Shown here piece after piece: positions 13,097-15,105 of a stretch of 64,000 nucleotides of DNA. Where the stretch lies: the NCBI GenBank assembly GCA_044892505.1, contig CM097883.1:386632001-386696000 (forward strand). Reading direction: 5' to 3'. Every line of letters starts with the position of its first letter. Position 1 is the stretch's first letter. The position numbers and the translations under genes are program-made. The DNA is from Schmidtea nova (lineage: Eukaryota). The notes beneath the pieces were generated by a model that worked only from the letters and a program-made list of their open reading frames with translations, did no database searches and was not told where the DNA came from.

Positions 13097-15105
13097 GAGG
13101 CGTTTGCAATGTAAGATCAGAAAGCCAGAACAATTGCTAAAATATTAGTCGAAGAAATATGTTGTAGAAATGGAACACCAAACAAATTTTAACCGATCAA
13201 GGAACAAATTTTATGAGCGAGATCATCAACGAAGTTACCAATTATTTCAGAATTGCTAAGTTGAGAACTTCACCATATCATCCCCAAACAAATGGACAAA
13301 CGGAGAGATTTAACGGAATATTGATTGAGATGATGTCAAATTATGTCAGTAAACACCAAAAGGATTGGGATGAATATGTGAATCTATGTCTAATAGCATA
13401 CCGTATGTCGATTCACTCGGCAACAAAAATGAGTCCGTTTAAATTGATGTACGGCAGAGAATGTAACATGCCAATGGATCTTGAATATCAACCACCAATA
13501 TCACAATATATGGAAATCGATGATTACGTCACAAAATTCAAGGAGCGAATGCAAGAAATTTGGAAAGTTGCAGGTATGAATATACGATTCAATCAAGAGA
13601 GCTAGAAAGAACTACACGACAAAAAGAGAAATGTACACGAACATCAGTTCAAGCTAGGCGATTGGGTGATAGTCGAAACACCGGAAATCATCCCAGGAAC
13701 AGCGAAAAAATTACAGAGAACGGGAAAAGGACCATATGAAGTCATATTTGTTAGCGAAAATAATATCAGGGTAAAATTAGTCAACAATCCGTTAGTTCGA
13801 CCGATATACGTGAACGTGTGTAGATGTAAACGAGTAGAAAAAACTGCGACAAAAGAACCAGAGGAAAGGAGAATAATGACCAGATCACAGACAAGACAAA
13901 TATGCATGCTTAGAAAGAGTAAAGGATGTGGATGTTTTGGAGACACAACATTCTTTACACCAAAGATGAGAAGTCTCACATTACAAATTAAGCAAGAAAT
14001 AACGGATGATGCGAGAATTGAACATATAAAAGAAATGGATCTGATAATAGAAACAGCAAAAGAGATTATGCCGGAATGGACAGAAGGCAAACACGTATTC
14101 GAAATAATAAACGGACTAAATCGGATAATAGATGACTATGCCAGAGGAAAGGCAACACCAAAAGTTATTAATATAATCAAGGAGCGAATGCCAATATTAT
14201 TTACAATGACTGATTTCAATGAGGAAACACCACTAAATGTAGCCTTGAGGAAGGGAGAAGGAAAAAGAGCTATGGAAATAATTAAACTCATGGAAAGATG
14301 TGGACAACACTCGAATATAAAAAATTGGAAAGGACAAACACCATTAATGCTAGCAGTAGAAGAAGGAGGGTCCAAAGACTTAATCGAGGAGTTACTAAGA
14401 ACAGGGTCAAGTATCAAAGAAAGAGATAACAACAATGAAACTGTACTATCATACGTTTACAGATCACCTTATTATACAATAGCCAAGTACCTTTTATCAA
14501 AAGCAAGTCAAGAGGACATTAAAATCCTGAGTTTAAATCCAAAGCCATTACTAAGAGCAGTAATGAGAAAAGACGAAATAGTAGCTACAAAAATGATAAA
14601 ATGGAAAGATCCACTCTCTGGAGAAAGACTGATGAATGTGAACAACGAGTTCAAAAATGATAAAAACGTGTTAATGGAGCGAGCTTTGATTGAAAATTGG
14701 ACATTACCTAGAGTAGCAAAAGCACTACTAAAAAGATCAGACTTCAGATTCACAAACAGGCCAAACGAAGAAATGAAAATAAAAACAAAGAGAGAAAAAC
14801 TACTTGAATTGGTTAAAGAATGGCGAAAAAAGATCAAAAATAAAGACAAGAGTTATCTTCACGACGATGCTGGAACATTGAAATGCAAAATGGGTGATAT
14901 AAAATTAGATGAACAAAGAATTATCAAATTTTACTGGGAAATAATCAAAGATATAAATGTCGAGGACGACATTTCAAAAGAAACCGAGGGTGATCTGAAC
15001 GATCCCGATGACGGCAAATCAGACGATAAAGACAACGATAGCAATGAACAGCAGCTAAATGATAATAACAGCGATCACGGAAATCACGGAAACAGTGACA
15101 AATAG
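13097..15105 (+). pseudogene. 5'-truncated gypsy integrase (core plus GPY/F region) fused in frame to ankyrin repeats and an acidic tail; frameshift near 13190 and premature TAG at 13603-13605
   Basis: LTDQGTNFMS...TSPYHPQTNGQTERFNGIL (integrase D...E core), KGPYEV and MTRSQ. The ORFs at 13213 and 13666 share a frame. Ankyrin motifs ETPLNVAL, GQTPLMLAVEEG, ETVLSYV, KPLLRAV. Confidence 0.85.

Follow-up and report, generated by a model that had tools for sequence, protein, structure and literature searches.

The 3' extension of a giant Gypsy retrotransposon of Schmidtea nova reads, from the integrase onward, as an ankyrin module, an acidic linker, a predicted signal peptide, four fibronectin type III (FN3) repeats, a predicted membrane helix, and a tail, and is likely cut into three products; we put the probability of this reading at about 0.65. 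The aspartic protease of the element would cut just past a basic MTRSQ motif, yielding a mature integrase without ankyrin. A hydrophobic stretch farther downstream would serve as an internal signal peptide, at which host signal peptidase would free a type I FN3 surface protein. The ankyrin-acidic protein would be left in the cytosol, tethered at first to the endoplasmic reticulum (ER) by the spent signal. The polyprotein would cross the ER membrane twice, which would place the Env protein and the FN3 repeats outside and keep Pol and ankyrin, between them, cytosolic. Analogous membrane threading and signal-peptide cleavage occur in flavivirus-type polyproteins.

The window analyzed here is a stretch of 64,000 nucleotides (nt), and all coordinates refer to it unless another locus is named. 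The LTRs, the deletion junction, and every feature from the integrase to the tail lie on the forward strand.

The element and its copy in the window

By its domain order, the element was classified as a Burro/GYPSM1-like giant Gypsy LTR retrotransposon. Pfam searches with pieces of a nearly open copy gave the domain order Retrotrans_gag, zf-CCHC, MATH, Monjiviricetes_fusion, aspartyl protease, RVT_1, RT_RNaseH, rve, Ank_2, and fn3. The Monjiviricetes fusion glycoprotein (Env; E 5.5e-70) lies in frame between gag and the protease-RT-RNase H-integrase region. TRAF-mep_MATH (E 5.8e-24) and Ank_2 (E 5e-13) were detected in the same open copy, and both rve and Integrase_H2C2 were matched. The intact polyprotein is a single ORF of roughly 5,000 amino acids (about 4,990 to 5,006 aa; the longest frames are mostly of 4,992 to 5,006 aa), and the full element, with an LTR of 3.6 kb, is estimated at ~28 to 29 kb, a length pieced together from several copies.

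The copy in the window is young, internally deleted, and broken. Self-BLAST placed its 5' LTR of about 3.6 kb at 4114 to 7747 (ends approximate to a few bases) and its 3' LTR at 18248 to 26138, in two pieces (18248 to 20432 and 24690 to 26138) split by a 4.3-kb insert. The 5' LTR was 99.6% identical to both 3' pieces, indicating that the insertion is young. A deletion of ~11 kb runs from before gag to mid-integrase. At the junction of this non-autonomous subfamily (12870 to 13025), upstream noncoding DNA is joined to mid-integrase via ~155 nt; the ~155-nt segment was absent from the four full-length stretches compared, and the junction region was common to 17 of the 19 other top copies. The window copy does not possess an intact integrase: everything before mid-integrase is deleted, and what remains carries a frameshift near 13180 to 13190 and a stop at 13603 to 13605.

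The ends of the 4.3-kb insert (20433 to 24689) resemble a reversed LTR. A broken RING-finger-like reading frame was spotted by eye in the upstream region of the element (10692 to 11070).

One reading frame from the integrase through the ankyrin repeats

According to the earlier note, the frame that carries the GPY and MTRSQ motifs runs on through ankyrin repeats, and this was borne out. The open frame extends from 13606 to 15102 (499 aa) and holds GPY, MTRSQ, the ankyrin repeats, and a D/E/N-rich stretch; Pfam matched Ank_2 to it above the cut-off (E 1.2e-14). The fusion claimed there also persists outside this copy. The integrase end and the ankyrin repeats share one frame in all 19 other copies, which were among the 40 best DNA matches, and 42 of the best 150 matches to an 87-residue FN3 stretch lie within frames of at least 4,900 aa. 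A further 39 of these 150 matches lie in frames of 1,320 to 1,370 aa and 11 in frames of at most 700 aa. None of the 150, to which the window's own copy does not belong, lies in a frame of 670 to 697 aa.

The stop codon that ends the frame (15103 to 15105) is a break of the window copy. The corresponding codon is open in 19 of 19 other copies, and directly behind the stop, 681 further codons are open in the same frame. Among 226 genome places with exact flanks, the stop stands in two, and the second stop-bearing copy is also broken elsewhere. Because of this rarity, programmed read-through was rejected. From the ankyrin repeats to the signal region, 16 of the 19 other copies read in one frame; the remaining three are broken in between, two with a stop shortly after and one with a frameshift. 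The proposal of an ankyrin protein with an acidic tail was thus right about the composition and wrong about the position. The acidic D/E/N-rich stretch is present (14953 to 15180; the 76 residues of an open copy include 25 D/E and 19 N), and it is a linker; a free C-terminal tail was rejected, since the frame runs past it in other copies.

The 39 matches in frames of 1,320 to 1,370 aa belong to the deleted, non-autonomous subfamily, whose open frame comprises half an integrase, the ankyrin module, the FN3 repeats, and the transmembrane (TM) helix.

Sister families

The window family (family A) was compared with three others. Families B and C, which bear env, were found by a profile search with the fusion protein, and their integrases are 55 to 56% identical to that of family A. 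Behind the integrase, both encode YPLRS, a signal-like stretch, an ectodomain of ~340 aa, a membrane helix, and a terminal ETFV, and a Pfam scan found no ankyrin in either. Family D, with an integrase identity of 80%, encodes ITRSQT, two ankyrin modules, an acidic linker similar to that of the window family, a signal-like stretch, four FN3-like repeats, and a membrane helix; its polyprotein ends in MVI, not ETxV. Both of its ankyrin modules are 27 to 28% identical to the window module. Across the four families, ankyrin modules number zero, one, or two between the integrase and the second predicted signal peptide. Because the ectodomain of families B and C and the FN3 repeats of families A and D share no detectable similarity, the layout common to A/D and B/C does not amount to demonstrated homology, and the B/C ectodomain was set aside as a homologue of the FN3 repeats.

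Several minor features of these families were recorded. The ~340-aa ectodomain of families B and C (L049:2-7690, L052:1-7536, and related loci) has no recognized domain. In both families, a YxLRS motif is found close to the start of Gag and again behind the integrase, and a downstream ORF of 470 to 480 aa without a Pfam match looks DEDD exonuclease-like by eye. Bcl-2 was matched below the Pfam cut-off in sister families (E 0.002). In family D, a separate gene with a TRAF-type zinc finger and MATH lies downstream of the polyprotein (L064:6296-7696).

The integrase end and a predicted protease site

The C-terminal half of a Gypsy integrase, broken in this copy, spans 13025 to 13908 (rve_3, E 0.0018), with its GPY motif at 13729 to 13737. 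The short basic motif MTRSQ lies at its end (13876 to 13890), and its counterparts are ITRSQT in family D and YPLRS in families B and C. MTRSQ/YPLRS resembles the arginine-anchor peptides with which viral proteins bind nucleosomes, and by this analogy MTRSQ is a possible nucleosome tether. The passages of PMC9040877 on viral peptides describe arginine anchors and give no TRS or LRS motif.

A cut site for the element's own protease, RQICM|L, was predicted between the integrase and the ankyrin module (13897 to 13911) from the recurrence of ICM and from border scoring. In 2,817 aa, ICM is found at two places, against 0.2 expected: the RNase H/integrase border and the position directly after MTRSQ. 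In all four families, the borders before the protease and before the integrase have a hydrophobic last residue, which is mostly Met; family D, with an integrase 80% identical to that of family A, retains M|LR at its ankyrin border. Scored against eight border sites, which are themselves inferred, the integrase/ankyrin site ranked 3rd of 1,561 scored windows and first among the untrained ones; without same-family training it ranked 11th of 1,561, and the ankyrin-border site of family D ranked 33rd of 1,254. These ranks lend moderate support to cleavage between integrase and ankyrin. Taken with the two sister families that have no ankyrin, the protease-site-like border motif suggests that the ankyrin module is likely released from the integrase. 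Since the parts are likely cut apart, the probable role of ankyrin is that of an accessory protein modulating the host, not of a targeting device.

In the Gypsy elements known as chromoviruses, the integrase ends in a chromodomain that directs integration. Like them, the present element carries an extra domain in frame behind GPY; in place of a chromodomain come a predicted cut site, the ankyrin module, and, after it, a membrane protein. No chromodomain family was matched by Pfam at E 0.5 in the window or at E 0.05 in the pieces of the open copy. The ankyrin module might nonetheless stay on the integrase and act like a chromodomain, tethering integration to a chromatin protein. It stands in frame at the chromodomain position in 19 of 19 copies and in family D, it is under purifying selection (see below), and the cleavage that would separate it is a prediction. 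The border motif and the two families without ankyrin argue against such a tether, as does family D, in which there are two modules, some 700 aa behind the integrase. Moreover, an uncut integrase-ankyrin product would be membrane-bound, because its end is a predicted signal peptide. We consider this alternative unlikely, and the new integration-targeting module proposed in the earlier note is disfavored on the same three grounds of border motif, ankyrin-free sister families, and predicted signal peptide.

Predicted signal peptide, FN3 repeats, and predicted membrane anchor

Cleavage into three products would require a second cut, downstream of the acidic linker. Hydrophobicity placed a predicted internal signal peptide at 15211 to 15264. 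Its 10-residue hydrophobicity of 2.73 is the highest between the integrase and the stalk, and it compares with 2.26 for the Env signal, 2.25 for family B, and 2.89 for family D. The lack of an ATG upstream of the hydrophobic stretch in families B and D is consistent with an internal signal peptide.

In one copy (L074/L104; G000:C2:140.237 Mb), exactly 54 nt bounded by GT..AG and coding for the predicted signal peptide (window positions 15209 to 15262) are missing, with the frame kept; this copy possibly derives from a reverse-transcribed spliced RNA. A regular splice that removes the signal peptide was rejected: the shortened form was found at 1 place, versus 482 genome occurrences of a 23-nt pattern from the signal region, and in 1 of the 59 copies compared.

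Four cysteine-bearing FN3 repeats form the predicted ectodomain (15280 to 16623), an assignment based on Pfam fn3, repeat alignment, and fold. When aligned, the repeats share an invariant C, Y, and C. Pfam fn3 matched one repeat above the cut-off (E 1.2e-6), and a profile built from eight repeats gave weak matches to fibronectin (E 0.003) and tenascin. Seven strands were seen when repeat 2 was modeled (pLDDT 75.7), and the Foldseek matches to this model were predominantly FN3 domains and monobodies, the best one an FN3 domain (E 7.4e-4). Atlas matches for the ectodomain were FN3 clusters, all below 0.9 and treated as leads only. A search of 1.84 billion representatives, in which eukaryotic elements may be under-covered, returned for the FN3-TM protein one weak match (E 2.4e-5), to an unrelated repeat protein.

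Behind the repeats, a hydropathy scan predicted a transmembrane helix at 16822 to 16875, preceded by a Thr-rich stalk and followed by a basic stop-transfer stretch. The cytoplasmic tail (16894 to 17151) contains several tyrosines and ends in ETLV-stop, which we take to be a class I PDZ-binding-type motif. The FN3 protein may be an adhesion or attachment protein on the surface of the cell or particle, where its PDZ-type end would sort it.

Selection on the 3' extension

Substitutions were compared in 20 near-full-length and 20 deleted copies that had been picked because their frames were open and they matched the query perfectly; the openness of these copies is thus no evidence. Omega was calculated over all variants, and the FN3 substitution counts exclude the query stretch. 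For the ankyrin module, omega was 0.23 in full and 0.28 in deleted copies (binomial P, 6.5e-8 and 6.5e-7), and for the FN3 repeats it was 0.29 and 0.25 (binomial P, 9.5e-6 and 2.4e-8); these P values are rough, because the counts ignore kinship of the copies. The C-terminal half of the integrase gave 0.08 and 0.09, and the TM helix with the tail gave 0.15 and 0.17. The acidic linker had an omega of 0.55 in full copies, which was not significant, and the linker plus stalk had an omega of 1.65 in full and 0.42 in deleted copies; the linker around the predicted cut is unconstrained. The ankyrin and FN3 parts are both under purifying selection.

This signal bears on the possibility that ankyrin is a recently captured host fragment, a passenger without function. 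In favor of a passenger, the module has no close relative in the protein collections. Its omega of 0.23 to 0.28 (P < 1e-6) largely refutes that idea, and its retention over the whole length in family D, at 25 to 28% identity, also speaks against it; we regard a passenger as very improbable.

Another alternative is that translation of the ankyrin protein, the FN3 protein, or both starts at internal ATGs of spliced or subgenomic RNAs, cleavage being secondary and the deleted subfamily being kept as an expresser. There are ATGs at 13876 and 15226, and the deleted copies, with their long open frames, make up 39 of the best 150 matches. Against this alternative, families B and D are without an ATG before the hydrophobic stretch, and family D has ITRSQT, not MTRSQ. 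The low omega of the deleted copies may be inherited from autonomous parents, because their useless integrase half is equally low (0.09, like that of full copies). Internal initiation is an improbable main route in our judgment, and release of the products by cleavage remains the preferred reading.

The ankyrin module and its possible target

The ankyrin module (13999 to 14754; Pfam core, 14275 to 14505) consists of capping helices and five ankyrin-type helix pairs. These were recovered in an AlphaFold model from a three-sequence alignment (pLDDT 73.2), in which residues 276 to 305 are unreliable. Every match listed in a fold search with the model was an ankyrin protein or a DARPin. With the model and the fold matches all pointing to ankyrin, the repeats were taken as real. 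Searches of protein collections with the ankyrin region, in which eukaryotic elements may be poorly covered, returned generic ankyrin proteins alone (8 and 5 matches) and no close relative.

The best viral fold match was the polyprotein of the planarian secretory cell nidovirus (PSCNV; E 1.7e-7, TM score 0.55, 341 columns, with 18% identity and an rmsd of 16 Å); the next viral match had an E value of 2.2e-5. In the passages of PMC6211748 on this domain, the PSCNV ankyrin domain is proposed to be an IkB mimic, its closest host homologues include Rel-ankyrin proteins, and it is predicted to lie in one product with a membrane segment after signal peptidase and furin cuts. The present element resembles PSCNV in having ankyrin inside the giant polyprotein of a planarian virus or element. 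The two differ in that PSCNV is an unrelated RNA virus and has fibronectin type II, not type III.

In IkB proteins and viral IkB mimics, an ankyrin stack is followed by an acidic stretch. The same succession is seen here; unlike in IkB, the module has five helix pairs and a predicted signal peptide follows the acidic stretch. Generic ankyrins and DARPins led the PDB searches by sequence and by fold, and Bcl-3 was 53rd of the best 60, in a ranking by whole-sequence scores that favor long arrays. No IkB was among the fold-search matches listed, and the PDB matches listed showed no sequence or fold preference for IkB. An antagonist released from Pol, as suggested in the earlier note, fits the anatomy and accords with the best viral match, PSCNV, but an affinity to IkB did not emerge from the PDB searches. 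The ankyrin protein would bind a host signaling protein, for which an NF-kB/Rel-type factor is our leading guess. IkB-like binding of such a factor is a tentative proposal by analogy, somewhat less probable than its converse, and the argument for it is indirect because it runs via the PSCNV fold match and the proposal in PMC6211748.

Relation to known Burro elements

Ankyrin repeats in Burro1/GYPSM1 had reportedly been noted by Jurka in 2007. The passages of PMC6431247 on these elements make clear that ankyrin cargo behind the integrase is already known for Burro/GYPSM1 elements: the 4,873-aa ORF1 of the planarian Burro1/GYPSM1 is described there with Gag, MATH, BCL2, in-frame Env, PR-RT-RH-IN, and ankyrin repeats. 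The same passages give a length of >30 kb, long LTRs, and BCL2-like, BIR, Smc, AIR1, SUMO-like, and dUTPase-like motifs, several of them detected by HHpred. Parts of PMC8532177 and PMC11410931 report Burro elements as abundant and piwi-silenced, and according to PMC8532177 the level of Burro RNA goes up on piwi knockdown.

The window family agrees with this published description in its huge ORF, zinc knuckles, MATH, in-frame Env, PR-RT-RH-IN, ankyrin, multi-kb LTRs, and hundreds of copies. Among the protein-collection matches to its ankyrin region and FN3-TM protein there was no Burro1 sequence. None of the BCL2-like, BIR, Smc, AIR1, SUMO-like, and dUTPase-like motifs was matched in it at E 0.05 in pieces of one copy, scanned with Pfam and not HHpred. 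Beyond what the text of PMC6431247 describes in those passages, the window family adds FN3 repeats, a predicted second signal peptide, a predicted membrane helix, and a PDZ-type end. An FN3 membrane protein was neither named in that text nor found in searches of the literature on Burro, GYPSM1, or retrotransposon fibronectin, although Grohme 2018 or figures and supplements may show it. The published 4,873-aa Burro1 ORF probably already includes the FN3 region.

Two things are added here. The polyprotein ends in a second predicted membrane protein, whose FN3 repeats are under purifying selection, and all four families show a succession of integrase, optional ankyrin modules, predicted signal peptide, ectodomain, and membrane helix. 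Should the FN3 protein be an attachment factor, this would bear on whether such giant elements move between cells as infectious proviruses. If ankyrin is an NF-kB-type inhibitor in common with the planarian nidovirus, this would point to an immune target common to both, and possibly to an exchange of genes between a retroelement and an RNA virus. A bolder and rather doubtful extension is that Burro-like elements are enveloped, retro-like viruses spreading from cell to cell. One polyprotein would then yield two surface proteins, a mononegavirus-type fusion protein before Pol and, after Pol, an FN3 protein for attachment whose tail is PDZ-type. Between the two would lie a membrane-tethered ankyrin NF-kB inhibitor, its ankyrin drawn from a source common with the planarian nidovirus.

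Other contents of the window

Outside the element, the window contains a Tc5/pogo-type transposase piece (37896 to 38639), a piece of a ribonucleotide reductase large subunit (45101 to 45628), and a Penelope-like RT/GIY-YIG remnant (46474 to 47583). From 52700 to 64000, a tandem array of nearly identical units of ~1,338 bp is found, each with a Dcp1-like frame of 295 codons (Pfam DCP1, E 4.9e-12).
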